The position numbers were made by a program, and so were the translations under genes. The notes under the pieces are model-generated. The model did not search any database. It was not told the DNA's origin and was given only the letters and a program-made list of their open reading frames with translations. From a virus, in the IMG/VR virus record IMGVR_UViG_3300046674_000373, positions 1-64,000 of that record: a stretch of 64,000 nucleotides of DNA; one strand, 5' to 3'. Of this stretch, positions 16,341-42,910 are shown in pieces; position 1 is the first letter of the stretch; each line of letters starts with the position of its first letter.

Positions 16341-16419
16341 TTTTGCGCCCTATGTGCGCCCTGAAAATCTGAAATTGCCGCAAGTCTTTGATTTATAAGA
16401 CAGTGATAAATGTCACATC
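16341..16419. other. secondary att-like site: integrase arm-type repeats, IHF box and core
   Basis: 22 bp identical to 42888-42909; IHF consensus at 16381-16393; 11 bp inverted match to 42769-42779. Confidence 0.65.
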
Positions 16420-16425
16420 ATCATT

Positions 16426-16815
16426 TCACTGCCCGGAACTGACCTCGCCGGCCACGATCACAGAGGGGAAATCAGGCGTCGGCGCCGGGTTCGACATGCA
16501 GCGGATCCCGGCGTCGATCAGCGCCGCGCCAGACCGGCCGGACGGTGTCGCCTTGCGCAGTTTCGTGCCGCAGCAGCACACCTCCGCCGCTGCCTGCGCC
16601 GATGCCTCCAGGCCGCAGTTCGTACACTGGTAGCGCCGCCATCCAGGCGCGTCGGCCGGCCTGCTGACCAGGCGCCCGAAGCAGGCCCGGCAGATGTGCG
16701 GCTCGAGCGCCCAGGTTTCGTCGCCTGGTGCGGCGTCGCGGCCGCCGAGTCGCCTCTCATGCGCCTGCGCCTGCCCGCGCGCGGAATACGAGTGTTCGGC
16801 AGACAATCCGCTCAT
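16426..16815 (-). CDS. Cys-rich zinc-finger protein
   Basis: CRAC, CTNC, CCC. Confidence 0.7.
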   Translation of the reverse strand: MSGLSAEHSYSARGQAQAHERRLGGRDAAPGDETWALEPHICRACFGRLVSRPADAPGWRRYQCTNCGLEASAQAAAEVCCCGTKLRKATPSGRSGAALIDAGIRCMSNPAPTPDFPSVIVAGEVSSGQ

Positions 16816-16817
16816 TT

Positions 16818-16872
16818 TGTGATCACCATCACATTCCCCCGCGCCACCGCGCTTTTTGTGATCCACATCACA
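16818..16872. promoter_or_regulatory. two perfect TGTGA-N6-TCACA (CRP-family) boxes
   Basis: 16818-16833 and 16857-16872, intergenic. Confidence 0.6.
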
Positions 16873-16877
16873 TCCTT

Positions 16878-17405
16878 TCACCACAGCCCCTGCTGCCTTG
16901 CCGCACTCACCCCGCGGCCCCAGCCGAGCAGCACGCGCTTTTCGCTGTCCCTGAGCAGCTCGATGGTCAGCTCGTCCATGCTCGCGGTCCTCTGCCTGAC
17001 CAGCACCCGCACCTGGCCGGCGACGACATAGCGTGCGATGCGCTTGTCCAGCTGTGGATGCGTGATCGGGAATTTCCCGCGCCCGTTCCGGCCCTTGACC
17101 CACTCGTATTCCCGGTTCTTGCAGCAGACGCAGATGTTGCCGCCGATCAGGCGCATGTCCGTGCGGTGGCAGCGCGCGCAGGTCCCGGTGCCCCGTAGCT
17201 TGTTCAGCGCTGCATCGACCACGCCCACATGCTGGGCTCCGATCTGACACTGGCGGCACTTGTGCAGCCTATCCGGCGCGTCCTTGCCGTTGGCCTTGAC
17301 CCACATCTCCTTGCAGGCCTCGACCCGAAGCGTGGCCCTCAGTGCTGTGCACTGAAACATCTTCTGCCCGGGCATTTCCGGGTATTCGAAGTATTCGATT
17401 GCCAC
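16878..17405 (-). CDS. Cys-rich zinc-binding protein
   Basis: CRQC, CARC, CVCC; start may be 17423. Confidence 0.7.
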   Translation of the reverse strand: MAIEYFEYPEMPGQKMFQCTALRATLRVEACKEMWVKANGKDAPDRLHKCRQCQIGAQHVGVVDAALNKLRGTGTCARCHRTDMRLIGGNICVCCKNREYEWVKGRNGRGKFPITHPQLDKRIARYVVAGQVRVLVRQRTASMDELTIELLRDSEKRVLLGWGRGVSAARQQGLW

Positions 17406-17449
17406 GCTGCCCCTCGACAACATTGTTGTGGCGCAAATTCTACGGGGAA

Positions 17450-17830
17450 ATGGTCACTGTGTGTGATATTTCGAGAGCAATCGCCGGTAAAAGCGTGGCT
17501 GAGGCGGAACAGAGTGCAGTTCAGGGTAGTTGCGAGCAAGGTTCCGGCAAGTTCCGGCTCAGTTTCCCCTTTGGTTCCTCCTATTATTATTCTATTTTCA
17601 TAGAGGAATAGAGATAGATAGAGAGGGAAGGGGAACTAAGAAACCAAAGAAGCATACCCCCATACAAAACTTAATTTAAAAAGTATTGGTAATCACATTA
17701 CCATTACCATACAATATCAATCTCTATCTGTGGATATTTGTCTCCGCATGGTTACCCGGTTACCCGGTTACTGTTGCGGTATTTCCTTTGAAAATCAAAA
17801 GCTTGCCCAGAACCGCCGGGGTAACTCGGT
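17450..17830. other. AT-rich divergent intergenic region, candidate replication origin
   Basis: GGTTACCC tandem 17750-17771, inverted GGGTAAC near 17819-17825, IHF box 17793-17805. Confidence 0.5.
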
Positions 17831-17864
17831 GGTATCCGGACGCATGAAAGGCGCGGCGAGGAGC

Positions 17865-18551
17865 ATGAACCCGAACGACACAAGCAAGGTGCTGGCCGAC
17901 ATCATCGGCATGGCTGAGGGCCGAATAAAAATATTTAGCGTCACGTTACACGAGGCGCGCGCGCTTGCGGACCGGGTGACCGCGCGCCGACCCGAGCGGC
18001 AGTTTGAGGTGAAGGGCGAGGACGGCAAGGCAGCGGTGCGGCGGCTGCCCAATCTGGAGCAAGCGGCGCAGCGCGCCCAGCGCGGTCGACCGGCGCTGTA
18101 CGACTTCGGCGACATGGAGGTCGGCGAGACGCGCACGATCGAGCTGCCCGTCGATCAGCACCAGGTGGTGCGCAATGCCGTCAAGCGCGTCCGTGACCGC
18201 AAAGGGTGGGACGTGGTCGCCAAGGCCAGCGGCGCGCGCGTCATCGTGCAGCGCGTTGGCCCGGGCAATCCGCCGGTGCCGGTCGGGCCAGTGCGCGGCT
18301 ACGGCATGGGCGCGCTTCAGCCGGGCCAGCACATTGATATTCCATCGAGCCCCGACCTGGTCGTGGCGAACGTGCGGCGCCGCGCCACCTATTACAGCCG
18401 CAAGATCGGTGCGCGCCTCACGGTCACAGTTAACGAGCTGGGCGGCTGCCGCATCACGCGCAGCACCACGCCAGCCACGGCCAGCGCAAAGCCGACCCCG
18501 CGCGTTCGGACCATCCCCCAGCTGTCCACATTCGATGAAGAGGAGTTCTAA
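17865..18551 (+). CDS. repeat-domain putative DNA-binding protein
   Basis: GAGGAG RBS; repeated YDFGDMEVGE / YGMGALQPGQ modules. Confidence 0.65.
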   Translation: MNPNDTSKVLADIIGMAEGRIKIFSVTLHEARALADRVTARRPERQFEVKGEDGKAAVRRLPNLEQAAQRAQRGRPALYDFGDMEVGETRTIELPVDQHQVVRNAVKRVRDRKGWDVVAKASGARVIVQRVGPGNPPVPVGPVRGYGMGALQPGQHIDIPSSPDLVVANVRRRATYYSRKIGARLTVTVNELGGCRITRSTTPATASAKPTPRVRTIPQLSTFDEEEF

Positions 18552-18895
18552 TGGATAAAGTAATTTTCAAGCGCGGCCGGCCCGGTGAGGACCTGATCGA
18601 GTACCAGGGCAAGGTAGTGGGCGCGATCAACCGCGTCGGCAATGGCGGCCGGTACGACGTCGTCATCTATAAGCCGCGGCGCGAGCTGATCGTCTACAAC
18701 GCCGAGCAGGCCAGAGCGCGCGCAAAGCAGTCGGTCCTCTACCCCGAAAGCGACCACAAGGGAGGCTGGCGCTTCATCGATGAGCACCAGCCAGAGGTGC
18801 AGCCAGAGATCAGGCTGCGCTCGGGCCTGGTCATCGAGGAGTATGACCCGGTGAAGGAGGCGCAGGCGGAGCGCGATTACTTGGACAATCTCTAG
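18551..18895 (+). CDS. hypothetical protein
   Basis: TAATG coupling, RBS. Confidence 0.7.
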   Translation: MDKVIFKRGRPGEDLIEYQGKVVGAINRVGNGGRYDVVIYKPRRELIVYNAEQARARAKQSVLYPESDHKGGWRFIDEHQPEVQPEIRLRSGLVIEEYDPVKEAQAERDYLDNL

Positions 18896-18922
18896 TGGCT
18901 GGCAAGCAACACGTTAGGCATA

Positions 18923-18965
18923 TACATCAAAAATAATGCACACTACAGCAAATTTGATGTATTAT
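18923..18965 (+). promoter_or_regulatory. early promoter with tandem 18-bp operators
   Basis: Near-palindrome TACAGCAAATTTGATGTA at 18944-18961; -10 TATTAT. Confidence 0.65.
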
Positions 18966-19000
18966 TCAGTCATCGAGCAGCGCATAAGGCGCGGCGACAA

Positions 19001-19201
19001 ATGAAGGGGAAGATGATGAACATCAACGCATACACGGAATTCCAGAACATCAAGGTCGGCGAAAAGTTCATCGACGCGGACGGCTTCGAATACGAAAAGG
19101 TCAGCGCCGAAAAAGCACGCCACTTCGACGCTCGCTACATCAACGGCCACATGGACTACGAGTACAGCGCCGACGACCGCCTGCGCGTGCAGTCCGCCTA
19201 A
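19001..19201 (+). CDS. hypothetical protein
   Basis: First ORF after the promoter. Confidence 0.6.
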   Translation: MKGKMMNINAYTEFQNIKVGEKFIDADGFEYEKVSAEKARHFDARYINGHMDYEYSADDRLRVQSA

Positions 19202-19242
19202 CCCCACCCCGCCCGCTCCGGCGGGCTCTACTGGAGACCACC

Positions 19243-19473
19243 ATGGACACTGAGATCACCGGCCCTGCCCTCACCGAACAGCGCACCTTGACCGTCGCCA
19301 TCGGCCGGAGCAAGAAACCCGCGCGCACGTTGGCCAACGCCTCCCGCGCCTACCGCAACTACCTCGACGAGAAGGACCTCGGCGCGAGCGCTGAGCCGGG
19401 CTGCACGGTCTTCGACGCAGCTGGCGCCAAGGTCGCCACGGTCTCGTACAACGGCCGTGTCTGGGCTGCCTGA
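19243..19473 (+). CDS. hypothetical protein
   Basis: GGAG RBS; SYNGRVW motif. Confidence 0.7.
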   Translation: MDTEITGPALTEQRTLTVAIGRSKKPARTLANASRAYRNYLDEKDLGASAEPGCTVFDAAGAKVATVSYNGRVWAA

Positions 19474-19502
19474 CCCGCGTCGGGCCTCAACCAAGGATAA
19501 AA

Positions 19503-19697
19503 ATGAAAAATACCGCCGACCTGAAAGAACTGATCGCCACCGCCACCGCGCGCGGCGCCGACGTGCGCACCACCGAATTCGAAGGCGAGATTGCCTCAGT
19601 GCATGTCCTCCGCATGCCAGGCATCGACCCATTCCCGATGACAGCCACCGTCGCGGCCAAGTGCCTGCGCGAACGACTGGCCTGCGAGCCGGCCTAA
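19503..19697 (+). CDS. hypothetical protein
   Basis: AAGGA RBS. Confidence 0.6.
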   Translation: MKNTADLKELIATATARGADVRTTEFEGEIASVHVLRMPGIDPFPMTATVAAKCLRERLACEPA

Positions 19698-19857
19698 ACA
19701 CCATGAACGCCAAACACCTCCACGAGAATGGTGGCGCATTGATCGACCTCCTCTTGATCGTCCTTGGCTGCCTGTGCGTCTATGGCGCGATCGACCCCGA
19801 CGGCGCCGAGCAGCTGCTGCGCCACCTTCAACAAACTGCCTTGAGCATAGTGACCGC

Positions 19858-20295
19858 ATGAACCTCTACGATAAAATCCGCGCGGGCATCGAGACCCACG
19901 GCCACTTCGTGCTGACCATCTTCGGCACCGAGTCCGCGCCGCCCTTCGCCTACACCATCGGCCTGTCCGAGAAGTACGGCCACGAGATCGTGGTTATCGG
20001 CCTGCCGCCCGAGATCGGCCACCCGATCCTGAACAGCGCCGCGCGCCTGATGGCTGCCGGACAGCTGCCGCTGAACACGCCGCTGGTCGACATCGCCAGC
20101 ATGCCCGTCATCCTTCGCGAGTGCTCGCCTGAGCTCATGGGCGACTACGGCATCCAGGCGGGCCGCTACTACCAGCGCGACGACATCAAGTTCCTGCAGC
20201 TAGTGTGGCCTGACGCCGCTGGCCGGTTTCCCGAAGATCCGCAGTTCGACGCCCACATGCGCCGCGTGCAGCCGCTGCTGTACGTGCTTCAATAA
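19858..20295 (+). CDS. DUF4262-like protein
   Basis: FAYTIGL...QLVWPD..GRFP. Confidence 0.8.
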   Translation: MNLYDKIRAGIETHGHFVLTIFGTESAPPFAYTIGLSEKYGHEIVVIGLPPEIGHPILNSAARLMAAGQLPLNTPLVDIASMPVILRECSPELMGDYGIQAGRYYQRDDIKFLQLVWPDAAGRFPEDPQFDAHMRRVQPLLYVLQ

Positions 20296-20317
20296 CCACA
20301 ACTTACCCGGGAGGGGT

Positions 20318-20941
20318 ATGGACCATAACAAAATCGCAGCGGCGCAGAGCCGCATGACGGACAAGATCGCCGGCAATCTGACCGGCGAGGAGATCGCGGC
20401 CGCAGCCTTCGCTCAGTTCGGCATCGTGGCTGAGGACGCCGAGGTCGTCGCTTTCGCGCTGTGGCTGCTGGAGCAGAGCGGGCACGGCAAGCCGGTAGAG
20501 GCCGCAAGCACCGCCACAGCACCTCTCCAGCCGCACGAGACGTTGTCGGCGCACCTCAGCGACCGCCAGGTAGCCAAGATGAACGGATACCTGGTGGCGG
20601 CCTATGCCGCCCTGAGCCCCGTCTCCACCACTGACCAGCGCCTCACGGGGCGCCTATGCGTGCACAACGTCCAGCGCATGCTGCAAGGCGACACGGAACC
20701 CCGCTCCAGCGACCCGGCCAGCGCCTATACCGCGCGCACGGGCCGCTATCTGTCGCTCGAGGAGCGCATGGCGGAGCGTACACGGGCTGGCCGCCGCGAC
20801 ACCGGCATCATCACCGAGCAGTCGCCGATCCTGCACATCTTCGCCTGGCTCGACCGCAACCAGTGGGCCTGCTGGCTGGGCCTGGCGCTCTGCATCTTCG
20901 CCGTCGGCTATATCGAGGCGCACTCCGAGATCGGGCTGTAG
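20318..20941 (+). CDS. hypothetical protein with C-terminal TM helix
   Basis: GGAGG RBS. Confidence 0.65.
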   Translation: MDHNKIAAAQSRMTDKIAGNLTGEEIAAAAFAQFGIVAEDAEVVAFALWLLEQSGHGKPVEAASTATAPLQPHETLSAHLSDRQVAKMNGYLVAAYAALSPVSTTDQRLTGRLCVHNVQRMLQGDTEPRSSDPASAYTARTGRYLSLEERMAERTRAGRRDTGIITEQSPILHIFAWLDRNQWACWLGLALCIFAVGYIEAHSEIGL

Positions 20942-20987
20942 ATAAGCAACCGAGCCAGCCGGACGCTGGCAATATCCAAGGACAATA

Positions 20988-22595
20988 ATGGAAGCCATAA
21001 CTGCCCAAGAGACCCACATCCACGACTACGGCGACTTCGACGCCTTCGTCCGCGGCATCAGCGACCGCTTCGCCAGCATCGAAGGCCCGGTTTTCGAGAC
21101 CGACGCGACCGGCCTGTACGATGCCTACCTGAACAGCTTCACCGATCCTGCGGCACGCCAGTACCACACCTGCAGCTGCTGCAAGCAGTTCATCGAGCGC
21201 TTCGGCACGTTCGCCACCGTCAACGACGACGGCCACCTGGTCCCGATCTGGAACGCCGACGACGCGCCCGAGCACTACAAGGCCGGCGTCGAGGCCATGG
21301 CGCGCCTGGTCCGCCGCGCGTCGATCACCATGCCATTCCTGTCGAGCCTGACGATGTACGGTACGCCGGTGTCCGGCCGCCGCAGCGACGGCGACAGCTG
21401 GACCCACTTCGCAATCATGCCGCGCCCGGAGCGCGTCTACGCGGGCACCAGGCTGAGGACTGCCTACCAAGCCGCATGCGAGAAGCGCGAGGAGTTCGCG
21501 TCCGTGCGCCAGGCGCTGGGCGAGTACACCAGCGAGACCTGCAACACCGCGCGCCGCCTGCTGAACGACGACCTGCTGGGCAACAGCGAGGCTGCGCTGG
21601 GTCAGGCCAACTTCCTGTGCGACCTGCACGCCGCCCGCGACAGCGTCCAGGGCAGCCAGGCGAAGGACAACCTCGTCTACAACGCCGTTGCCCAGGCGCC
21701 GTCCGGCTTCTGCCACCCGCGCTCGAGCATGATCGCCACGCTGCTGGATGACATCGCCGCCGGGAAGAGCTTCGAACGGGCCCAGGCGGCTTGGAACGCG
21801 AAGATGCACCCGCTGCGCTACCAGCGTCCGCAGGCGGCGCCGACGGCCGGTAACATTGCCCAGGCCGAGAAGCTGTTCGCGCAGCTGGGCCTCGCCCCGG
21901 CGCTGGCGCGTCGCATCGCGCGCCTGGACGAGATCCCGAAGTTGTGGGAGCCGCGGCAGGAGCTGCCGGCCCAGCCGGAGGGCGGTGGCGTCTTCGGTCA
22001 CCTGACGCCCAAGGGCGCTGCGGCCGCGCCGGCCATGACCACGCCGGAGATCATGATCACGCTGGAGAAGTTCGTTCGTACGGTGGTCCCGACCGCGGAG
22101 AAAATCGAGGTGTTCCTCAGCGTGCGCATGCACTTCCTGACCATCACCACTGCGGTGGACCCACAGGCGCCGAAGCTGTTCCAGTGGGATCACCCGTTCG
22201 CCTGGTATGTGTGGCACGGCGGATCGATCCCGTCGCAGTACGGCCTGACCCCAGGCTGGGCGGCCGCAGCCGGCATCACGCGTTTGCCGTCACGTTGGGG
22301 TGACGAGAGCGAAGAGCGCTTCCAGCACCAGGGCGACGGCATCATCCTGCTGGTCGAGGGCGCGCGCGAGACGCGGCAGGCTGGCGCCGGGATATTCCCG
22401 CAGTGCCTGCGCTCGGACCTTCGCGAGGTGCGCGCCACGATCGAGGCATACTCGCGCGACGCCAAGATGCAGCGGCTGAGCGACGGGTCCGCGATCGGCA
22501 TCGACCTGCGCCAGGGCGGCAGCGGATACCCGGTCACCGTGCGCGTCACGGCAGATGGCCGGGCCCAGACGTACATGATCGACCGCTGGGATTGA
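20988..22595 (+). CDS. conserved phage hypothetical protein
   Basis: 535 aa; HTCSCCKQFI motif; RBS. Confidence 0.8.
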   Translation: MEAITAQETHIHDYGDFDAFVRGISDRFASIEGPVFETDATGLYDAYLNSFTDPAARQYHTCSCCKQFIERFGTFATVNDDGHLVPIWNADDAPEHYKAGVEAMARLVRRASITMPFLSSLTMYGTPVSGRRSDGDSWTHFAIMPRPERVYAGTRLRTAYQAACEKREEFASVRQALGEYTSETCNTARRLLNDDLLGNSEAALGQANFLCDLHAARDSVQGSQAKDNLVYNAVAQAPSGFCHPRSSMIATLLDDIAAGKSFERAQAAWNAKMHPLRYQRPQAAPTAGNIAQAEKLFAQLGLAPALARRIARLDEIPKLWEPRQELPAQPEGGGVFGHLTPKGAAAAPAMTTPEIMITLEKFVRTVVPTAEKIEVFLSVRMHFLTITTAVDPQAPKLFQWDHPFAWYVWHGGSIPSQYGLTPGWAAAAGITRLPSRWGDESEERFQHQGDGIILLVEGARETRQAGAGIFPQCLRSDLREVRATIEAYSRDAKMQRLSDGSAIGIDLRQGGSGYPVTVRVTADGRAQTYMIDRWD

Positions 22596-22655
22596 TTGTG
22601 CGCCAGTAATTAACAACGCCGCGTGTTGCAAAAGCCACGCGGTGTTTTCTATTAG

Positions 22656-22698
22656 TGCATCAAAATTATTTGCGAATACATCAAATTTGCTGGATAAT
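22656..22698 (+). promoter_or_regulatory. sigma70-like promoter with tandem operators
   Basis: TTGCGA-N17-GATAAT; TACATCAAATTTGCTGGA at 22677-22694. Confidence 0.7.
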
Positions 22699-22734
22699 TG
22701 CTTTACAGGTCCAGTCGGGCCGCCAACAAGGACA

Positions 22735-23412
22735 ATGATGAATGCGAAAGCATATCCCCAAGAGATGAACCGTTCGGTGCGCAGCCGGAACCTGCGCGAA
22801 GGCTTCTACCAGGGCATGCAGTCTGGGCACCACCGCCGCGGCGAGCGCCGCACCGCCCTCCGTCCCATTTGTCCCTACCTGGTCGACGAGAGCCGGTTCG
22901 GTGACGGCCCGTGGCTCGGGGAGCCGAGCAGTCTGCACTTTAAGACTGCCGAGGGCTTCGACGCGGTCATCCTGCGCGCCAGGCACAGCGGGGCGCTGCT
23001 GGGCTACGTCGGCGTGCCGGCCAGCCACCCGTGGCACGGGAAGCAGTACCACCACCGCGTCACCGCAACCCGCGAGCAACTGGAACAGCCCGTCGACACG
23101 GACAAGCTTAGCTTCATCTCGATGTTCACCCACGCATTGTCCGACCACGACAGCAATGAGGTAAGCATTGACTGCCTCATCCGCGTGCACGGCGGCCTGA
23201 CTTATTCGGACCGTGGTTATTCGAGGATCGGCGAGGATCCGCGCTACTGGTACTTCGGGTTCGACTGCGCGCATTACCGCGACCTGTGCCCGGCGTATCA
23301 AGGCTTCACGGGTGACGGCACCTATCGCGACATCGGCTACGTCAAGGCCGAGATCGCCGCTCTGTCGCGCCAGCTGGCCGCCGTCGTAGCGCGCGCCGAG
23401 GTCCCGGCATGA
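22735..23412 (+). CDS. conserved phage protein (HGGLT/GFDCAH family)
   Basis: GYVGVP..HP, VHGGLTY, FGFDCAH. Confidence 0.8.
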   Translation: MMNAKAYPQEMNRSVRSRNLREGFYQGMQSGHHRRGERRTALRPICPYLVDESRFGDGPWLGEPSSLHFKTAEGFDAVILRARHSGALLGYVGVPASHPWHGKQYHHRVTATREQLEQPVDTDKLSFISMFTHALSDHDSNEVSIDCLIRVHGGLTYSDRGYSRIGEDPRYWYFGFDCAHYRDLCPAYQGFTGDGTYRDIGYVKAEIAALSRQLAAVVARAEVPA

Positions 23413-23597
23413 AGGCGCTTTTCCAAGCCATCCACGACCTGCTCTTCCCACCCGCCGAGAAGATGCGGGCCAAGGCACTCACCGAAGCGCATCGCCTGCT
23501 CGAGCACTACACGCAAGCCCACGAGGAGTGCGAGGCGATGATCGGCCTGTACCAGAAGCGCATCGCGCGTCTGGACACTCTCCAGGAGCAGCCGTGA
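23409..23597 (+). CDS. hypothetical protein
   Basis: Coupled ORF. Confidence 0.6.
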   Translation: MKALFQAIHDLLFPPAEKMRAKALTEAHRLLEHYTQAHEECEAMIGLYQKRIARLDTLQEQP

Positions 23598-23682
23598 GCG
23601 ATTGCCTGGTCGACCTCCTATATGGTGCCGTGGCGGGCCTCATCGTCGCGGCTATCTTCCTTTACTTCCTCCCCTGACCACC

Positions 23683-24924: not shown

Positions 24925-25159
24925 ACAGGCGACCTACCTGCTGCGTAGCACGTTCGAAGGCGTGGCGTATTACCTCAATAATGTTTCCGCAAATGGCTGC
25001 AACGTCGAGTTCGACCGGCGCATAGACCACGCATGGCGTTTCACCGGAAAGGGGCGCGGCGACCTGATGAGGGACCACGGCCACATTCGCGGGCGTTGGG
25101 TTCTGCTGGACCGCGAGCAGAAGCGCAGAGCAGCCGCCCAGGAGGCAGGCGATCTATGA
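24917..25159 (+). CDS. hypothetical protein
   Basis: GGAGG RBS. Confidence 0.6.
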   Translation: MAKQATYLLRSTFEGVAYYLNNVSANGCNVEFDRRIDHAWRFTGKGRGDLMRDHGHIRGRWVLLDREQKRRAAAQEAGDL

Positions 25160-27595: not shown

Positions 27596-27990
27596 CCCCC
27601 GCCCTGTTCCTCGCCGCCGCGGCGGCCAGCGCGCCGCTGTCCTGCCCCTTGACCCTGCCGCGCGAAACGGTCGCGGTGCGCGCCCCGCCGCAGTGGCATG
27701 GCTACGTGCCGCCCGATATCATCCGCCTGACCGGCTTCGGCCTCTTGGGCGGGGCACCGGAAACGCTGAGCTACCTTGCGCCCACAGCCAGCACCCGTAG
27801 CACGGTGGCGCGCAGCACGATCACCTGGCGGCTCGACGCCGATACCCCGCGCTGGCTGTACTGCACCTACGACGATTCGGCCGCGATCCAGATAGCGCGC
27901 CCGCTGCCATCTGGCGGCACGGTCTGCACGATTGCCTACCGCAAGACCAGGCAGGACGGCATTACCGACATGGCCGCCTCCTGCCGCTAG
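27592..27990 (+). CDS. Tai2-like (STY0301 family) periplasmic immunity protein
   Basis: Signal peptide, CP, GAPE...LAP, WLYCTY, four Cys; ATGA-coupled to the amidase. Confidence 0.78.
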   Translation: MTPALFLAAAAASAPLSCPLTLPRETVAVRAPPQWHGYVPPDIIRLTGFGLLGGAPETLSYLAPTASTRSTVARSTITWRLDADTPRWLYCTYDDSAAIQIARPLPSGGTVCTIAYRKTRQDGITDMAASCR

Positions 27991-34480: not shown

Positions 34481-34656
34481 AGACACTCCAATAAAAATTT
34501 TTCTAATTGTAGCCGAAAATCACTACTACACACAAAAATATTGTATGATTATTGCGTGTAGTTAAGTGCATTTCAGAGTATTGGAGTGCCGCAGGCTTGA
34601 TTGCATCGCCTGCTTTCCTTCATTTTTATTGAGTGATTTGTTTCGGAACCGAACCT

Positions 34657-35688
34657 ATGACGGATCTATACGATCAGGGCGGCGGCAAGTTTGCGCCAGC
34701 TATTGACCACCCGACAGGCCTGGTGGAGTGCAGTAACGAAGAGTACCACTCGGGCCCGGGCATCAGCAAAAGCTCCCTGGATGCCATCGCGATAAGCCCG
34801 CTCTACTATTGGGATGCCTACCTTAATCCTGACCGCGAACCGCGCGAGGAGAAACATTGCTTCGCTGTTGGCGACGGCACGCACAAGCTGGTGCTGGAAC
34901 CGGGCGAATTCGAAAAGCACTACGATGTCGGCTTCGACAAGTCGAAGTACCCGAGCGCGCTGAATACTTCCGACGACTTGCGGCAGGCGCTGGCTAAGCA
35001 TGGCGAGATGGTCAGCAGCAAGGCGGCCAAGCCGGAATTGATCCGCATGCTGCTGGAGATCGACCCGGCCGCCGAGATCCTCGCCGAGCTGGAGCGTAAG
35101 TACAACGAGGGCCTCCGCGGGAAGACCCTGATCGACGCCAAATCCTACAAGGACATGCTGGGCATGCTGCGCGCGGTGAACAACCACCACACCGCGCCCG
35201 GGCTGCTCTTCAATGCCAGTACCGAGCAGTCGTTCTATGTGGTCGACCAGTTCGGCGTGCTGCGCAAGTGCCGGACGGACGCGATCACCTTCGACGGGCG
35301 GTACGTGGCCGACCTGAAGACTACCGACGACGTGAGCGAGGCCGGGTTCGGCCGCACGATCGCGCAGCGCCGCTACCATGTTCAGGCGGCCTGGTACCTC
35401 GACATCCTCAAGATGCTCTACGGCGCCGACGCCCCGCGCGAATTCGTGTTCATCGCGGCGCAGAAGACGCGCCCATACGACGTCGCAGTGCACTTTCTGA
35501 ACGAGGCCGACATCCACCTCGGCCGCCGCCTCTACCAGCAGGACCTCGCCACCTACATCCACTGCCTGCGCGCCGGTTATTGGCCCGGCGCCGACGGCGG
35601 CGAAATCATCCAGGCGCGGCTGCCGAACTGGGCCGAGTACCAGGCGGATGCCGCCGACCTGTCCGGCTGGAACGCGCTGGCCGCCTGA
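34657..35688 (+). CDS. PD-(D/E)XK exonuclease VIII/RecE-like
   Basis: YH...ISKS, G...H...LEP, KCRTD, DLKTT, YHVQAAWY. Confidence 0.9.
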   Translation: MTDLYDQGGGKFAPAIDHPTGLVECSNEEYHSGPGISKSSLDAIAISPLYYWDAYLNPDREPREEKHCFAVGDGTHKLVLEPGEFEKHYDVGFDKSKYPSALNTSDDLRQALAKHGEMVSSKAAKPELIRMLLEIDPAAEILAELERKYNEGLRGKTLIDAKSYKDMLGMLRAVNNHHTAPGLLFNASTEQSFYVVDQFGVLRKCRTDAITFDGRYVADLKTTDDVSEAGFGRTIAQRRYHVQAAWYLDILKMLYGADAPREFVFIAAQKTRPYDVAVHFLNEADIHLGRRLYQQDLATYIHCLRAGYWPGADGGEIIQARLPNWAEYQADAADLSGWNALAA

Positions 35689-35716
35689 TCACCTTCCCCA
35701 ACCACCGAGAGCACAC

Positions 35717-36301
35717 ATGAGCAAGTTCACAGTCGAAGAGCGCGGCAAGTGCGTCATCATCTACGGATTCATGCCAGTAGACTGGCTGTCGCGCTTTAGC
35801 AAAATGATGCCAGGCGCGCTCGTCGCTCCGCATCTGGCGCAGATGCTGGGCGCGCACTTCGCGTTCGGCCTGAAGGCCGACGTCGACGCGCTGATCGCCG
35901 AGCTGAAGCCACAGGTCGAGGCCCGCGTGCGCGCTGAGCCTGCCAACAGCAACCTCTCTCACGAGGCCTCCATCTGGCTGGCCTCCGGCGAGCGCGGCGT
36001 CAGCAGCAACACGATCTTTTCCAAGCTGACCGGCGTCGACTCGCTGGACAACTGGACGGCTGACTGCCCCTCGGACGTTTGGGACCTGCGCCGCTGCCGG
36101 CTGCTGCTGGAGCAGGTGCCTGAGCTCGTCGCCCGGTTTCCGCAGATGGCGACGGCATCGAAGCGCTGGTCCGCCCTCGTGCGCGAGTGGGACACGATCT
36201 GCCGTGTGATGGACGAGGAACTGCCGAACTGGCGCAACCCGAAACTGAACGACAACGCCCCCATGACCTACAAACTTCTCAAACAGGCCGTCGGCCACTA
36301 A
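35717..36301 (+). CDS. hypothetical protein
   Basis: GERGVSS...PSD..DLRRC..LL motif. Confidence 0.75.
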   Translation: MSKFTVEERGKCVIIYGFMPVDWLSRFSKMMPGALVAPHLAQMLGAHFAFGLKADVDALIAELKPQVEARVRAEPANSNLSHEASIWLASGERGVSSNTIFSKLTGVDSLDNWTADCPSDVWDLRRCRLLLEQVPELVARFPQMATASKRWSALVREWDTICRVMDEELPNWRNPKLNDNAPMTYKLLKQAVGH

Positions 36302-36306
36302 CCACC

Positions 36307-37629
36307 ATGACCACAAAAAAAATCGCGAAGGTACGCATCAGCAACATCCTCGGCATCGACGAGCTGGAGTTCACGCCGGACGGCAAGCTGACCGAGATCA
36401 CCGGCAAGAACGGCAAGGGCAAGACCTCGGTGCTGGAGGCGATCAAGTCGGTCGCAGGCGGATCCGACGCCACGCTCCTGCGCAAGGGCGCCGAAAAGGG
36501 CGAGGTCGTCCTGGTGCTGGACGACGGCACCGAGCTGATCAACAAGGTGACCGCGTCGAGCAGCACCAAGACGATGATCCGCGACGGCAAGAAGGTGCCG
36601 AAGCCAGCCGACGCCATCCGCCAGCTGGTCGACCTGCTGTCGGTGAACCCGGTCGAGTTCCTGACCGCGCGCAAGCAGGACCGCGTCAAGGTACTGCTTG
36701 AGGCGATGCCGATCGAGCTCGACGTCGAGAAGCTGTCCCGGATCGCCGGCGTGCCTGTCAAGGCCGCGCCAGGCGTGCCGGCCCTCGACCTGATCGAGCT
36801 GGTGCGCAAGCAGGTCTACGAGGACCGCACCGGCACGAACCGTGCCGTCAAGGAGAAGGACTCCACGATCAACCAGATGACGCTGGCGCTGCCGGAAGTG
36901 CCGGAAGGCGTCAGCGGCAACGAGGACGAGCTGCGTGCGCAGCTGGAGCAGGCGCGGACCACGCGGGACGCCGAGCACCAGCGGATCGCGACCAAGCTCG
37001 ACGGGATCCGCAAGGAGAACTCGGACAAGGTCGCCACGCTTCGCGCCGAGGCTCAGGCCCAGATCGATGCGATCAACGCGAAGCTGCAGCAGGACGTCGA
37101 CGCAGCGAAGGCAGAGCTGACCGACTGGGAAGGCAAGGCGGCGCGCCAGCGCGAGCTGACCACCGAGCGCTTCACCACCGCGGCGTCGCCGCTGAACGAA
37201 GCGCTGGCCGTCATCAAGTCCAGCCGCGACACCTTCGCCAAGCGCGAGCAGGCCGAGGCCTACATCAAACAGATGCAGGAGGAGCTGGCAGGCCTGCAGC
37301 AGGACGCCGACCGCCAGACCAAGGCGCTGGACGCGATCGACGCCTACAAGGTCGAGCTGATCAGCAAGTTGCCGATCCCGGGTCTCGAAGTGGTCAACGG
37401 CGAGGTGCTGCGCAACGGCATCGTGTTCGACCGCCTCAACACGGCGCAGCAGGTCGATATCGCGATCGAAATCGCCAAGCTGCGCGCCGGCGAACTGGCC
37501 ATCGCCTGCGTCGACAACTTCGAAATGCTCGACCCGGAAGCCTTCGAAGAGTTCCGCGCGCGCGCCGAGGAATCGAACCTCCAGCTCTTCGTCACCCGCG
37601 TCACCGGCGACGAATTCCAGATTCAGTAA
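36307..37629 (+). CDS. SMC/SbcC-like AAA ATPase
   Basis: GKNGKGKTS, long coiled coil, CVDNFE. Confidence 0.88.
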   Translation: MTTKKIAKVRISNILGIDELEFTPDGKLTEITGKNGKGKTSVLEAIKSVAGGSDATLLRKGAEKGEVVLVLDDGTELINKVTASSSTKTMIRDGKKVPKPADAIRQLVDLLSVNPVEFLTARKQDRVKVLLEAMPIELDVEKLSRIAGVPVKAAPGVPALDLIELVRKQVYEDRTGTNRAVKEKDSTINQMTLALPEVPEGVSGNEDELRAQLEQARTTRDAEHQRIATKLDGIRKENSDKVATLRAEAQAQIDAINAKLQQDVDAAKAELTDWEGKAARQRELTTERFTTAASPLNEALAVIKSSRDTFAKREQAEAYIKQMQEELAGLQQDADRQTKALDAIDAYKVELISKLPIPGLEVVNGEVLRNGIVFDRLNTAQQVDIAIEIAKLRAGELAIACVDNFEMLDPEAFEEFRARAEESNLQLFVTRVTGDEFQIQ

Positions 37630-37653
37630 CCCCCACCACTCTCAGGAGAGAAC

Positions 37654-38751
37654 ATGCAAGACCTCGTACCAACCCAGCACCAGCAGCAACACCATCCCGT
37701 CCCGTTCGGCCAGGGCCGCGGGCTCGCGCAGACCGGCGCCATCAACCAGGGCGCCGTCACCGTCGAAGTCGAGCGCGCGATTGCCGAAGCGCAGGGCCAG
37801 ATGGCGCTGGCGAAGCGCTTCCCGCGCGACCTTACCGCGGCGCACGCCGAGCTGATGCTGGCCTGCAAGTCGCCAGCCTTCGCTGGTGTCGCCTTTTATT
37901 CCAAGCCGCAAGGCGGCAGCACGGTGACCGGCCCGTCCATCCGCATGGCCGAGCAGATCGCCCAGGTGTACGGCAACTTCCAGTACGGCCACCGCGAACT
38001 GTCGCGCGACGACTCCAAGTCCGAGGTCGAGGTGTTCGCCTGGGACATGGAGAAGAACAACTACGTGAAGCGCCAGCTGACGGTGCTGCACGTGCGCGAC
38101 ACCCGCGAGGGCCCCAAGAAGCTGCGCGACCAGACCGACATCGACATGAAGATCAACAACGTCGCGAGCAAGCAGTCGCGCGGGCTGATCCTCGCGATGA
38201 TGCCGAAGTGGCTGGTCGAGGAAGCCGTCCAGGATTGCCGCAAGACCATTGCCGGCAACAACGAGGAGCCGCTCGAGGTGCGCGTCCGCAAGATGACGCA
38301 GGCGTTCGCCAAGTTCGGCGTCAAGCCGCAGCACCTGGAGAAGTACCTAGGCCACACGCTGGACGAGGTGCTGCTTGACGAGCTGGTCGACCTGCAGGGC
38401 GTGTACAACTCGCTGCGCGACGGCACGCCGGCATCGGACATCTTCGGCGACCACGACGATGAAAGCCCGCAGGCCGAGTCCACCAGCAAGGGCATCGCCG
38501 AGACGGCCAAGGCTGGCGCGGCGGCGAAAGCGGCGGCCGACAAGACGAAACCTGCCGCTAAAGCAGGCACTGTTGCACAAAAACAAGGCGCAGCCGAGCC
38601 GGCACCGGATAGCAATCCCGTGAAATCGGAAAGCAAGGCCGTGGAAGAACAAGCCACGCCAGCCGCTACACCGGCCGAGAACTCGCAAGCACAAACCGAG
38701 GGTGCTGATTCTGTACCAGACCGTACAAAAGACGGTGCGGACCTGTTCTAA
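37654..38751 (+). CDS. putative ssDNA-annealing/recombination protein
   Basis: GPSIRMAE...GN...AWDMEKN; located in the exonuclease operon. Confidence 0.6.
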   Translation: MQDLVPTQHQQQHHPVPFGQGRGLAQTGAINQGAVTVEVERAIAEAQGQMALAKRFPRDLTAAHAELMLACKSPAFAGVAFYSKPQGGSTVTGPSIRMAEQIAQVYGNFQYGHRELSRDDSKSEVEVFAWDMEKNNYVKRQLTVLHVRDTREGPKKLRDQTDIDMKINNVASKQSRGLILAMMPKWLVEEAVQDCRKTIAGNNEEPLEVRVRKMTQAFAKFGVKPQHLEKYLGHTLDEVLLDELVDLQGVYNSLRDGTPASDIFGDHDDESPQAESTSKGIAETAKAGAAAKAAADKTKPAAKAGTVAQKQGAAEPAPDSNPVKSESKAVEEQATPAATPAENSQAQTEGADSVPDRTKDGADLF

Positions 38752-38781
38752 GCAACAAAAGAAGGCAAACGGGGCAGTTTT

Positions 38782-38994
38782 ATGACGGACAAGGCAAAGA
38801 ACTATTTCACGCCAAAGGAATTGTCGGAGCATTTGGACGGACGCATTAAGGTCCGGACGTTGAATAACTGGCGCCAGAATGGCTCGGGCCCGCCTTTTAC
38901 GAAGATCGGCGGTGCCGTGCTGTACCCAGTGACCGCCGTCGAAGCCTGGCTCAAGTCCAGGACGGTGTCGAACACCAGCCAGTATTCGAAGTGA
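38782..38994 (+). CDS. excisionase-like HTH protein
   Basis: TLNNWR..GSGPPFTKIGGAVLY. Confidence 0.8.
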   Translation: MTDKAKNYFTPKELSEHLDGRIKVRTLNNWRQNGSGPPFTKIGGAVLYPVTAVEAWLKSRTVSNTSQYSK

Positions 38995-39041
38995 CCAGCG
39001 CGGGGCTCCGGCCCCGCATTTTTCAAAGCCGGGGAGGCAAT

Positions 39042-39695
39042 ATGCATGCAGAAAAAGATGCTGTAGCGGCGGCCGCGCGCGCGCCGAAAGAGAGACCGAT
39101 TTTGTTCAGCGGCGCCATGGTGCGCGCGCTGCTCGACGGCAGCAAGACCCAGACGCGGCGCATCGCGAAGCCGCGCCGGAAGCCCAGCCTGCTCGATGGC
39201 ACGTGGACAGACGACTACGTGCTCGACGCAGGGAATCATGAGTGGCTGATGGCGGATAACCCCTACGGCCAGCCCGGCGACCGCCTGTGGGTGCGCGAGA
39301 CGTTCGTCCATATCGATGATGAGGGCGACAAATTCGACGGTATGGGCAGCCAGACTTACTACCGCGCGTCGTGCCCCCAGCCGGAACGCGACGACGCTTG
39401 GCTACGCGAGCGCGGTCTTCGCTGGCGCCCCAGCATCCACATGCCACGGGCGCGCAGCCGCATCCTGCTTGAGGTGGTCAGCGTGCGCGTCGAGCGGCTG
39501 CAGGATATCAGCGAGGCAGATGCGCAGTCCGAAGGCGTGGCCGAGTGGGCGCGCGGCGCGTGCGCAGCTGGCAACCCGAACGGATACACCGACGTCGGCT
39601 ACTACTCCCTACTGTGGGAGCAGATCAACGGCGCCGGCAGCTGGGATGCCAACCCATGGGTGTGGGTGGTCGAGTTCAAGCGGGTGCAGCCATGA
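39042..39695 (+). CDS. ASCH-like phage protein
   Basis: ERPILFS..MVRA...KTQTRR, WRPSIHMPR, NPWVWV. Confidence 0.85.
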   Translation: MHAEKDAVAAAARAPKERPILFSGAMVRALLDGSKTQTRRIAKPRRKPSLLDGTWTDDYVLDAGNHEWLMADNPYGQPGDRLWVRETFVHIDDEGDKFDGMGSQTYYRASCPQPERDDAWLRERGLRWRPSIHMPRARSRILLEVVSVRVERLQDISEADAQSEGVAEWARGACAAGNPNGYTDVGYYSLLWEQINGAGSWDANPWVWVVEFKRVQP

Positions 39696-40111
39696 CGCGC
39701 GCCACAACCGCCAAGAAGACCGATCGCCTGGCGCACGTCAACGACCTGATCAAGACCATTTCCGATTACGGCCGCCGATTCTTCTACAACAAGGAGCGTG
39801 ACCGCGTCGCGCGCATGCTGATCGGCCCGAAGGGTCACCTTTACTTTCAAGACGACTACACCGGCAAGGCGATCTACGTCGCGTACCAAGGTCGCTGGAG
39901 TGGCTTTAGCCACGGCGGCACGCTGAAGACCCTGGTCGAAGCGCTGGCCAACTACGTCCGGACCGGACAACAGCTGTCGATCGGCTGGATCGGGCCGGAG
40001 CGCTTCGACGACAGCAATATCTGGGGCTACGCCGAGGACGAAATGGCGAAGTGCCGGGCGGCCGCCCTGACCAACCCGGCGATCAAGCGTCGGGACGCCG
40101 CCACGGCGTGA
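39692..40111 (+). CDS. hypothetical protein
   Basis: GRRFF, FSHGGTL motif. Confidence 0.75.
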   Translation: MTRATTAKKTDRLAHVNDLIKTISDYGRRFFYNKERDRVARMLIGPKGHLYFQDDYTGKAIYVAYQGRWSGFSHGGTLKTLVEALANYVRTGQQLSIGWIGPERFDDSNIWGYAEDEMAKCRAAALTNPAIKRRDAATA

Positions 40112-40126
40112 CAACACAAGGTATAT

Positions 40127-41227
40127 ATGGAATGGACCAATCAACAGGCGGCCGCGCTCAAGGCCGTTCATAGCTGGCTACGCGACCCGAAGGGCAAGCA
40201 GGTTTTCCGCCTCTTCGGCTTCGCCGGTACCGGCAAGACTACCCTCGCCAAGCACATCGCCCAGTATGCCGACGGCCTCGTCTGCTTCGCCTGCTTCACC
40301 GGCAAGGCCGCGCTTGTCCTCCGGAAGAAGGGCTGCGAGGGCGCCAGCACCATCCACTCGCTGATCTACAAGATCGACGATCCGGAGGCCCAGCACCCGG
40401 AGTTCGTGCTGAACCCGGACAGCCCGCTCTCCATCGCGGAGCTCGCGATCATCGACGAGGTGTCGATGGTCGACGAGGACCTCGGCCGCGACCTGCTCAG
40501 CTTCGGCAAGAAGGTGCTGGTGCTGGGCGACCCGATGCAGCTCAAGCCCGTGCGCAAGGACGAGGGGTACTTCACCGACCCGAAGGACAGGCCGGACGTG
40601 ATGCTGACCGACATCCGGCGCCAGACGGCCGAGAACCCGATCATCCGACTGTCGATCGACGTGCGCGAGGGCCTCGGCTTGGTCGCAGGCGAGTACGGCG
40701 CGGCGCGCGTCATCCACCGCTCGCAGGTCGACCCGGAAAGCGTGCTGGCCGCCGACCAGGTGCTGGCCGGGATGAACAAGACCCGTCGCACGTTCAACCG
40801 GCGGATCCGCGAGCTGCGCGGCCGCACCAGCCCGCTGCCCCAGGAGGATGATCGCCTGGTCTGCCTGCGCAACAATCGCGAGCTCGGGCTGCTGAACGGC
40901 TCTCTCTGGCGCACCCAGCGCGCGTCTGCCTTCGGTGAGATCGTGACGCTGGAGGTCGATTCGCTGGACGGTCTGCAGGACCCGGGCGCGGTCACGGTGC
41001 CGGCCGCCTTCTTTCTCGGAACCGACGCCGACCTGGACTGGCGAATCAAGCGCCAGCATGAGGAGTTCGATTTCGGCGAGTGCCTCACCGTGCACAAGTC
41101 GCAAGGCTCCCAGTGGGACAACGTGATGTTGTTCGACGAGAGCGCCACCTTCCGCGAGCAGCGAATCAACCACCTGTACACCGGCATCACCCGGGCGGCC
41201 GAGCGGCTGACCGTGGTGCTGCCTTAA
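40127..41227 (+). CDS. RecD/Dda-like SF1 helicase
   Basis: GFAGTGKT, DEVSM, GDPMQL, TVHKSQGS, YTGITRA. Confidence 0.93.
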   Translation: MEWTNQQAAALKAVHSWLRDPKGKQVFRLFGFAGTGKTTLAKHIAQYADGLVCFACFTGKAALVLRKKGCEGASTIHSLIYKIDDPEAQHPEFVLNPDSPLSIAELAIIDEVSMVDEDLGRDLLSFGKKVLVLGDPMQLKPVRKDEGYFTDPKDRPDVMLTDIRRQTAENPIIRLSIDVREGLGLVAGEYGAARVIHRSQVDPESVLAADQVLAGMNKTRRTFNRRIRELRGRTSPLPQEDDRLVCLRNNRELGLLNGSLWRTQRASAFGEIVTLEVDSLDGLQDPGAVTVPAAFFLGTDADLDWRIKRQHEEFDFGECLTVHKSQGSQWDNVMLFDESATFREQRINHLYTGITRAAERLTVVLP

Positions 41228-41241
41228 CCTGAAAGGAGTTT

Positions 41242-41796
41242 ATGAATACCCTCTGGAGCATCATCGCCCACCTGGTCTCGCGCCCGGCCGTGGTCGACTA
41301 CCTGATCAAGCGCGCGAAGCGGACGCCCTACATCCACATCACCGGTCCGGACGGCAGCGTCTACATGGAGCGCTACTGGCTCTTCAATCCGTACCCGGCG
41401 AACTCGTCCGGCAACCGGCCGTGGTGGAAGTTCCCGATCTCGATCCGGCTGCACCGGATCATGCGCGAGGACGACGACCGCGACCTGCATGACCACCCGT
41501 GGAACGCCCGAACGGTCATCCTGCATGGCTGGTACCGCGAAGTGCGCCTCAAGCAGCACCAGCACGAGACGTACGAGAAGGTGTATCCGGTCGAGCTGGT
41601 TCCGGTCACCTACCGACGACTGCCAGGCGACACTGCGCGCCTGCGCTTCGGCGAGTACCACCGCATTCTGCAGGTCAGCCCGGGCGGCGTCTGGACCCTG
41701 TTCATCACCGGCCGCTACCGCGGCACCTGGGGCTTTCTCGTCAGCGGGGTGAAGGTGCCATGGCGGCGTTACCTGGGCATCGAGGAGCAGGCATGA
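41242..41796 (+). CDS. cupin-like phage protein
   Basis: YMERYW, LHDHPW, YHRI, WTLFITG. Confidence 0.75.
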   Translation: MNTLWSIIAHLVSRPAVVDYLIKRAKRTPYIHITGPDGSVYMERYWLFNPYPANSSGNRPWWKFPISIRLHRIMREDDDRDLHDHPWNARTVILHGWYREVRLKQHQHETYEKVYPVELVPVTYRRLPGDTARLRFGEYHRILQVSPGGVWTLFITGRYRGTWGFLVSGVKVPWRRYLGIEEQA

Positions 41797-42050
41797 TGAC
41801 CGCTACCGCCCCACGCTACGCCCTTTACCCCGGCTTCGTCCGCAGCCAGACCGACGGCGACCGCCACTACATCGGCGCGCTGACCCTGGCGCACCTGTAC
41901 GGCGTGCGCGTGCAGGACTGCATCGTCATCAACCCGAACGACGCGGACGACCCCAGCCAGCGCGAGAAGCTGGAGCGGGCGCGCCGGCTCGTGCCGCTGG
42001 TGCCGCGCTACGACGGGAACTACACCCTGCCTCTGGCGAGGGCGGCATGA
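41793..42050 (+). CDS. hypothetical protein
   Basis: PG.V.S..DGD.HYI...L..LYGV motif. Confidence 0.7.
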   Translation: MMTATAPRYALYPGFVRSQTDGDRHYIGALTLAHLYGVRVQDCIVINPNDADDPSQREKLERARRLVPLVPRYDGNYTLPLARAA

Positions 42051-42310
42051 CCGCCGCCGTCTTGACCCCGGCCCAGCTCATGCTGCTGCGCGAGGCGCTG
42101 GGCCTGAGCCACTACCAGCGGGCGCCGATCCGGCACAACCTGCCTGCTCATGCCGCCAAGGGGCGCGAGGACGACGTCGCTGCTCTGGAGCGTATGGGCT
42201 ACCTGCGCACCAGGATGTTCGCCGGGGAGGGTGGTTGGGAGTCCGTCACCGAGATCACGGCCGAGGGCGAGGCTTGTGCGCTGGCGAACTCGACAGTGGA
42301 GGGCAGCTGA
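42047..42310 (+). CDS. hypothetical protein
   Basis: Coupled ORF. Confidence 0.6.
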   Translation: MTAAVLTPAQLMLLREALGLSHYQRAPIRHNLPAHAAKGREDDVAALERMGYLRTRMFAGEGGWESVTEITAEGEACALANSTVEGS

Positions 42311-42642
42311 TGGCCGTCTACGTCGACGACATGGAGGCGCCGTACGGCCGCATGAAGATGTGCCACATGCTGGCCGATTCGGATGCCGAGCTGCACACCA
42401 TGGCCGACCGGATCGGCGTGGCGCGGCGCTGGCACCAGGCGCCGCCGCACGACAGCCACTACGATATTGCGCTCAGCAAGAAGGCACTGGCCGTCGCCGC
42501 CGGCGCGATCGCGATCACGTGGCGCCAAGCCGGAGCCATGAACTTCCGGCGGCGCGTCACCGGCCAGCTCGGCGACCCGAGCGACGCAGTCGAGTGGATG
42601 ACTAGCTACAAGGCCAAGGTCCGGGCCGCCGCTCCAGCCTAA
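42310..42642 (+). CDS. DUF4031 family protein
   Basis: VYVDD...CHMLAD...ELH...IG...HYDI. Confidence 0.85.
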   Translation: MAVYVDDMEAPYGRMKMCHMLADSDAELHTMADRIGVARRWHQAPPHDSHYDIALSKKALAVAAGAIAITWRQAGAMNFRRRVTGQLGDPSDAVEWMTSYKAKVRAAAPA

Positions 42643-42649
42643 AAAACTA

Positions 42650-42680
42650 CGGGCGGCCCTTTTGAGGCCGCCCGCTTTGT
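42650..42680 (+). terminator. intrinsic terminator
   Basis: GGGCGGCC...GGCCGCCC hairpin followed by TTTGT. Confidence 0.6.
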
Positions 42681-42681
42681 C

Positions 42682-42910
42682 TGCGCCCTATTTGCGCCCT
42701 AGAGCTTGGCCCCAGAGGGTAAATCCATGCTCCACCTAGCGAAAATAGCAGTTGCGCTGAGACAATGAGACATTTATCATCCCTATCACGGAAGTACACG
42801 GAAATGCATTTGTGTGCGTAATTTCAACGCGTTAGCCATCTCGACCGGCGACCGGCGAAACCCGCAAAATGCGCCCTGTACCCGTATTTTTGCGCCCTAT
42901 GTGCGCCCTA
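42682..42910. other. attP-like site
   Basis: TGCGCCCTA arm repeats on both sides (42682-42701, 42891-42910); CACGGAA repeats; IHF-like 42822-42834; directly upstream of integrase. Confidence 0.7.

Follow-up and report, generated by a model that had tools for sequence, protein, structure and literature searches.

A candidate integrase docking module lies between early genes of a temperate phage of the Dolphis/PHB04 group and is repeated across its relatives

Introduction

Attachment sites of the lambda type (C'-H'-P'1P'2P'3) carry a tandem with a period of about 11 bp some 50 to 60 bp from an inverted-repeat core, with a site for integration host factor (IHF) between the two, and their arm sites are split two and three between the two sides. 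Here we describe a module of like architecture in the first 64,000 bases (referred to below as the window) of the 96,165-bp IMG/VR record IMGVR_UViG_3300046674_000373, where the module lies between early genes at a distance of 26 kb from the integrase gene, int, and the attP beside it. The attP of this phage shares the two-plus-three layout of lambda, and the remote module shares the phased tandem, the IHF site, and the inverted repeat. Unlike a lambda-type attP, however, the remote module is one-armed and stands far from int; moreover, relatives contain up to about ten such modules per genome, variable in their center, and the window contains one remote copy.

Proteins encoded by integration modules are known to act at other control regions. 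P2 Cox, 186 Apl, and P4 Vis bind direct repeats at attP and at early promoters, an arrangement that resembles the present one in that direct repeats at attP and in early control regions would be served by one integration-module protein. Those proteins are, however, recombination directionality factors (RDFs) that bind one arm, whereas the repeats described here occupy both arms and persist in genomes without a xis homologue. The fim switch and the R64 shufflon likewise combine a tyrosine recombinase, IHF, and sites that share inverted sequence. The present locus differs from both, since no identical inverted spacer is found at the canonical position, no orientation polymorphism is seen among the relatives, and the segment to be inverted would measure 26 kb and would split attP.

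Two further systems come close. Repression of an integrase promoter by the integrase itself, exerted at arm-type sites, is established for IntS of KplE1 and for Int of satellite phage P4 (PMC2951348), and in this phage, where an integrase would likewise serve as a transcription factor, arm-type sites are also found directly upstream of int; in KplE1 and P4 only the integrase's own promoter, in attL or attP, is concerned, whereas here the same sites occur at other transcription units as well. Repressors of Cluster A mycobacteriophages (L5 gp71 type) act at dispersed, oriented operator sites, the stoperators, that stop elongation (PMC9283540). Stoperators resemble the modules in being many, asymmetric, intergenic, and oriented with transcription, with a block of elongation proposed, but they are single 13-bp sites bound by an immunity repressor, whereas each module is a phased composite of two motifs spanning about 92 nt with the integrase as candidate binder.

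Results and Discussion

The tandem of the attP arms recurs between early genes

The window is part of the genome of a temperate phage of about 96 kb that belongs to the Dolphis/PHB04 group. The record has a 127-bp terminal repeat, which indicates a circular assembly, and a GC content of about 64%. Protein searches placed the phage in a little-studied group of 86- to 98-kb phages that includes Pseudomonas phages Dolphis, Jeremy, and Touem01, Bordetella phage PHB04, Aeromonas phage ST4, Escherichia phage ECML-606-1, Yersinia phage fHe-Yen8-01, and Morganella phage Mecenats66; a nucleotide search of a phage database returned only short matches, to Dolphis and PHB04. Relatives were gathered with the early gene g026 as family marker, and the closest one in IMG/VR (G001, 97.8 kb) encodes an integrase 73% identical to that of this phage.

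The 22-mer TTTTGCGCCCTATGTGCGCCCT occurs identically, on the plus strand, at 16341 to 16362 and at 42888 to 42909 beside int, a repetition for which no counterpart is expected in shuffled sequence, and a copy with three mismatches lies at 42679 to 42700. Within it is a tandem, TGCGCCCT-N3-TGCGCCCT, with a period of 11 bp, of which the entire 96,165-bp record contains exactly three copies (starting at 16344, 42682, and 42891), always on the plus strand. Single copies of TGCGCCCT were found at 42870, on the P' side of attP, and at 42968 inside int, the latter probably by chance. A preliminary description of this DNA had reported the identical 22-mers, one of them beside int, and a third tandem, and both observations hold, the third tandem being located at 42682 to 42700. 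The perfect minus-strand IHF consensus that it described beside the remote copy was likewise found, as AATCAAAGACTTG at 16381 to 16393.

The remote tandem, TGCGCCCT-ATG-TGCGCCCT (16344 to 16362, plus strand), has the same motif as the attP arms, is conserved in G001, and lies 26 nt upstream of the GTG start codon of the leftward gene g025. The IHF site occupies the middle of a 46- to 47-nt spacer, beyond which a core-like inverted repeat, AATGTC-ACATC-ATCATT (16409 to 16425), abuts the stop codon (16426 to 16428) of the gene here called gX; its offset of 47 nt equals the canonical 58 nt less 11. The inverted repeat of the window is a diverged form. In G001 its counterpart, AATGTC-ACAGT-ATCATT, stands at offset 58, and an intermediate form, AATGAT-N5-ATCAGT, was found in relatives (L270 to L272).

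The module is repeated, phased, and oriented across the family

The remote copy proved to belong to a class of elements when IMG/VR was scanned for the exact pattern and whole relatives were then scanned as well. In relatives the tandem occurs many times per genome, on one strand per region and within short intergenic regions; most integrase-bearing relatives have several modules each, and up to 12 tandems were counted in a genome when the attP arms were included. The architecture, which emerges when the tandem is taken as anchor, consists of the tandem, a phased spacer of 57 to 59 nt, and a 17-nt inverted repeat, usually of the form CC[T/A]GA-N7-TC[A/T]GG. An inverted repeat with at least five of six pairs stood at offset 57 to 59 in 30 of 70 tandem matches, compared to a control rate of 0.7% per offset. 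Across the family, 43 modules were curated. The motif is asymmetric and the orientation of the modules follows the genes, always along transcription and flipping where the surrounding genes flip, so that these are dispersed, oriented sites.

Three of the modules, that of the window among them, form a short class with a spacer of 46 to 47 nt, about one helical turn below the main class, and each of them has an exact IHF consensus whose place in the spacer is the same. Over the whole set, four of the 43 module spacers contained an exact IHF consensus, compared to 0.47% of control 57-nt windows. The stop codon of the preceding gene adjoins the inverted repeat or is overlapped by it, often through the TGA of CCTGA (as in modules of Dolphis, ST4, and PHB04), and the 7-bp centers vary freely within genomes. 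In ST4 the module half-site GTCTGATT recurs inside attP at the same offset from the P-arm tandem; therefore, the modules reproduce the "P arm plus core" arrangement found in attP.

Separately, we noted that each early gene thus ends exactly at a module, a layout that recalls a gene cassette. A phage-specific promoter was also considered for the tandem and rejected, because the next start codon may follow as closely as about 12 nt or lie more than 130 nt away and because the tandem points away from int at attP.

attP of the phage and the candidate core

The int gene (42926 to 44098, plus strand) encodes a P4-like heterobivalent tyrosine integrase with an Arm-DNA-bind_3 domain (62.6 bits), the sole one encoded in the genome, and a Phage_integrase catalytic domain (61.3 bits) in which alignment showed the residues R..HxxR..Y to be kept. 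Upstream of it, the P-arm tandem TGCGCCCT-ATT-TGCGCCCT (42682 to 42700, plus strand), with arm-type sites, is identical in G001 and in the metagenomic contig L184, and the P' arm (42870 to 42909, plus strand), conserved in the same two, consists of a single TGCGCCCT at 42870 to 42877 and a tandem at 42891 to 42909 that ends 16 nt before the ATG of int. Two sites thus lie on one side and three on the other of a conserved region of about 170 bp, and this layout and the central block are kept in G001 and L184 despite diverged flanks. From this sequence arrangement we conclude that the tandems at 42682 to 42700 and 42870 to 42909 are the P and P' arm-type sites of the P4-like integrase. An IHF-like site with one mismatch to the consensus (TTTCAACGCGTTA, 42822 to 42834, plus strand) lies in the P' arm; its position is conserved in the Dolphis attP, which has TATCAACGGCTTA there.

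The central block, TGAGAC-AATGA-GACATT followed by TATCATC (42758 to 42781), is conserved in three phages and stands at the canonical 58-nt offset from the P-arm tandem. It is the candidate attP core, within which crossover would take place.

That the repeats occupy the arms of a real attP is indicated by the conserved arm layout together with two observations on relatives. Between the corresponding tandems of Dolphis and Touem01 lies the 3' portion of tRNA-Arg(ACG) in reverse complement, spanning the anticodon stem-loop through the CCA end. In the 95.5-kb provirus G417 (IMGVR_UViG_2823949316_000001), a prophage junction with an intact tRNA-Arg(ACG) was found (L333, 1554 to 1745); four GGGCGC repeats lie within about 65 nt after the tRNA at that prophage end, and int lies at the opposite end. 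This junction is direct evidence, joined by the arm repeats around tRNA-Arg(ACG) in Dolphis and Touem01, of a temperate group.

Prophage insertion was seen only for relatives of the other integrase class described below, with G417 in tRNA-Arg(ACG). The attP of this phage has no recognizable tRNA-like fragment, unlike those of Dolphis, Touem01, and PHB04, and a tRNA scan of the window found no tRNA. A search of genome contigs with the integrase gave a best match of 41% identity and no close prophage; a search of metagenome contigs gave a further free-phage attP only (L184, 69% identity) and no attL or attR. The attP center, compared by BLAST with 401 Pseudomonadota genomes, gave one match (E = 0.002), which is at chance level for that number of genomes, and two further genomes gave nothing useful; neither attB nor a lysogen of this phage was found in any of these searches.

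The centers of the remote module and attP differ at the canonical offset

The preliminary description had gone further and proposed that Int recombines attP with the remote site via an inverted 8-bp overlap (GACATTTA / TAAATGTC), thereby flipping the block from 16.41 to 42.77 kb as a lysis/lysogeny or integration-competence switch. The sequences on which this was built are present: the remote flank AGACAGTGA-TAAATGTC-ACATC lies at 16398 to 16419, one base off the start implied there, the attP flank AGACAATGA-GACATTTA-TCATC lies at 42760 to 42781, and the two 8-mers are reverse complements at the places given. Indeed, the inverted identity extends to 11 nt (TGATAAATGTC / GACATTTATCA) and is modestly non-random (P of about 0.006 in first-order Markov shuffles of the two intergenic stretches, for a match chosen post hoc). 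Assembly of an Int complex would also be plausible at a place where an arm tandem and an IHF site lie beside the remote element.

When the two places are aligned by the module architecture, however, TAAATGTC overlaps the left half-site of the module and GACATTTA overlaps the right half-site of the attP block, and the reversal of the 8-mers would then be the appearance given by inverted half-sites of one protein. Identity of the overlap is required by lambda-family integrases, but the 7-bp centers at the canonical offset, CACATCA in the remote module and CAATGAG in attP, match in neither orientation. Because these centers differ, we propose that the remote module is a binding site and not a recombination substrate; centers that vary freely are what binding sites, not recombination partners, would be expected to have. 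Nor is the remote site a unique partner of attP, since it is one of a many-copy class co-oriented with transcription. In G001 the tandem and the module are kept, yet the remote flank and attP share no match of at least 8 nt. All eight integrase-bearing genomes compared keep gX beside the module in the same arrangement, and in these genomes the xis homologue, where present, lies a few kilobases upstream of int, together with a helicase gene where one was detected. Neither of the two junctions predicted by an inversion of the block turned up in an exact search of IMG/VR, which is weak evidence given that few close relatives are included there.

Int is the likely binder of the tandems

At least two exact tandems were present in 21 of 25 integrase-bearing genomes and in none of nine integrase-less genomes (Fisher P = 1.4e-5), an association that is not phylogenetically independent. 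By chance, about 0.2 tandems per genome would be expected, and of the four exceptions, two have tandems that are variant or degenerate. Among complete genomes, Int is the only protein of this phage found in all seven other module-bearing ones and absent from both module-less ones.

Two complete 93-kb relatives, G002 (IMGVR_UViG_3300046512_000174) and G003, are instructive. Neither has a xis homologue or the arm and tRNA part of attP, but both keep five to seven modules and an int that is apparently catalytically intact, which suggests that these genomes keep int for some task apart from integration. Touem01 offers a second line of evidence: the tandems of its attP arms read TGGGGCCC, and its remote modules carry TGGGGCC with the same TAT linker and a phasing of 57 to 58 nt; the motif of Dolphis is TGCGCCC. 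In Touem01 the arm motif and the remote motif thus co-vary, which points to Int. On the grounds of shared sequence, phyletic pattern, independence from Xis, and co-variation in Touem01, Int is the likely binder of the tandems. Xis was itself tried as the binder, and that candidacy was weakened by G002 and G003. The suggestion in the preliminary description of a second integrase site far from attP therefore stands as to its sequence, its co-variation in Touem01, and its restriction to integrase-bearing relatives, but not as to its being an inversion partner.

Proposed control of early transcription

On balance, we think it probable that the remote copy is an Int docking module between early genes that controls transcription. 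The N-terminal arm domain of Int would bind the tandem, while its core-binding and catalytic domains would bind the inverted repeat, and IHF or intrinsic bending would close a short loop between the two. Such a looped complex would sit between gX and g025, overlapping the region just upstream of g025, and could serve as a stoperator-like transcriptional block or operator for the leftward operon that runs from g025 into a phosphatase gene. At attP, Int would autoregulate int through the P' arm sites. A consensus scan placed no int promoter.

Several points weigh against this proposal, in addition to the lack of phylogenetic independence already mentioned. Both the binding of Int and the transcriptional effect at the module are read from sequence patterns. 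The inverted repeat of the window is weak (four of six pairs), a scan for sigma-70 promoter and terminator consensus around the window module found nothing convincing, and the variable distance from tandem to start codon across modules fits no single promoter geometry. The inverted repeats of ST4 resemble those of the Dolphis class even though the ST4 catalytic domain is of the class of this phage; this mismatch weakens the case for recognition of the inverted repeat by the catalytic or core-binding domain. Other possible binders are a host factor and a second protein of the phage whose presence accompanies int.

Indeed, a factor other than Int might bind the tandems and coordinate attP and int with the early operons, whether a phage regulator that travels with the integration module, for instance an RDF of the Cox, Apl, or Vis type, or a host protein. 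The precedent of those three proteins speaks for such a factor, as does the fact that the phage encodes an Xis-like protein with an HTH_17 domain match (38782 to 38994, plus strand), the Xis of the preliminary description; the failure of the inverted-repeat type to follow the catalytic-domain class in ST4 is also compatible with it. We nonetheless consider this reading unlikely, because modules are kept in G002 and G003 without a detectable xis homologue, because Int alone among the proteins of this phage matches module presence across the ten complete genomes, because the arm and remote motifs changed together in Touem01, and because tandems on both arms, two plus three, are typical of arm-type sites.

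A different proposal would make the modules true recombination sites, either secondary att-like sites or integron-like cassette boundaries, at which Int deletes, captures, or exchanges early-gene cassettes between related phages. The module starts at the upstream stop codon and joins an arm tandem to a core-like inverted repeat with a 7-bp center; the genes next to that primary site vary from relative to relative, apart from the conserved gX, and even in genomes that have no attP the integrases retain their catalytic residues. Against this, centers that differ within one genome would block intragenomic exchange, the compared genomes included no variant with a deletion or a rearrangement, and variable genes beside intergenic regions are common in phages anyway. 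The proposal thus appears improbable, and we give equally little credence to a second job of Int in which the modules serve as cassette boundaries or secondary att sites with, in this phage, occasional recombination between the remote module and attP, inversion included. On that improbable reading, genomes that lack attP and xis would keep int for cassette exchange.

It is very unlikely that the module acts on RNA, as a stop-codon hairpin with a downstream G-rich element for processing, termination, or translational coupling. The inverted repeat does lie exactly at the upstream stop codon, and strong hairpins occur in some spacers, one of them with the form of an intrinsic terminator. However, the spacer classes are about 11 nt apart, or one helical turn of DNA, and the short class always has an IHF site; the same tandem is found on both attP arms, where the logic of a transcript does not apply; and the association with int is strict.

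The Int-driven 26-kb inversion switch, which is unsupported in the face of a family-wide repeated module, differing centers, and a constant gene order, is the least credible explanation, with only a small probability left for a rare event, and a tempting claim is thereby removed.

If control by Int docking is correct, a phage integrase would be a genome-wide architectural regulator of early transcription, and integration or excision status would be tied directly to early gene expression; integrases are so far known to regulate only their own promoter. The 43 phased sites across cultured phages (Dolphis, ST4, PHB04, and Touem01) and the natural specificity swap in Touem01 make the proposal easily testable, and the module provides a practical annotation signature for a poorly studied group of 90- to 98-kb phages. 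Dispersed arm-type or intasome-like modules were not described in the literature searched and are absent from a paper that discusses the Dolphis/PHB04 group. Arm sites, IHF, and autoregulation by Int are known; their phased, repeated, transcription-oriented deployment outside attP appears to be new.

Genes around the remote module

The leftward early unit begins with g026 (16878 to 17405, minus strand), which encodes a Cys-rich protein of 175 amino acids. It is followed by gX (16426 to 16818, minus strand), which encodes a Cys-rich, zinc-ribbon-like protein of 130 amino acids and, in most of the relatives examined, is the gene just before the primary module. Beyond the module, g025 (16036 to 16317, minus strand; phrog_6519) comes first, and after it in the leftward operon lies a gene for a NinI-like Ser/Thr phosphatase (15311 to 16039, minus strand; phrog_246, E = 1.4e-60). 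The module thus separates g026 and gX from g025, the phosphatase gene, and about 15 kb of further leftward genes.

Neither gX nor g026 had a Pfam or PHROG match. The two adjacent genes encode multiple CxxC motifs and are conserved in every family member, integrase-less ones included. Homologues of gX (about 90 to 130 amino acids) are labeled "DNA repair helicase" in some records, which looks like a misannotation, and a long alternative reading frame (16426 to 17259) overlaps g026. Between leftward g026 and rightward g027 is a divergent intergenic region of 460 bp (17406 to 17864) with lower GC content, which is likely the early control region. No family match was obtained for g027 or g028, and no repressor was identified.

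Between g060 and attP lies a bidirectional terminator hairpin (42649 to 42675) that is conserved in G001. Its minus strand scores better as a terminator, with the T-run AGTTTTTTAG, and the hairpin may stop leftward transcription leaving the attP/int region.

Integrase classes and palindromes upstream of int

The integrases of the group show domain shuffling, in that one arm-binding N-terminal domain, 48 to 74% identical across the group, is joined to two classes of catalytic domain. These classes are about 21% identical to each other; one comprises this phage (G000), G001, and ST4, and the other comprises Dolphis, PHB04, Touem01, and G002. Members of the latter class with an identifiable attP core (Dolphis, Touem01, and G417) integrate at tRNA-Arg(ACG), and PHB04 also carries a tRNA-like fragment. 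In the class of this phage, attP has no recognizable tRNA fragment.

In the tRNA-Arg class, the stretch upstream of int that separates the core from the P' arm contains a perfect palindrome, TTGATCATTTATGATCAA (Dolphis, L137, 1590 to 1620, minus strand; also Touem01). In G002 (L105, 1760 to 2360, minus strand) and G003, only 127 bp of intergenic sequence lies beside int, and it contains the palindrome TTAATCATTTATGATTAA, which is the G002 version of this element; this phage has CATTTAT in the conserved central block (42771 to 42777). Another regulator of int may use the palindrome as its operator. Touem01 has a second tandem just beyond the P arm of its attP (27679 to 27698 in reverse-complement coordinates), consisting of two copies of GGCGCACCA and distinct from TGGGGCCC, to which an RDF or another factor may bind.

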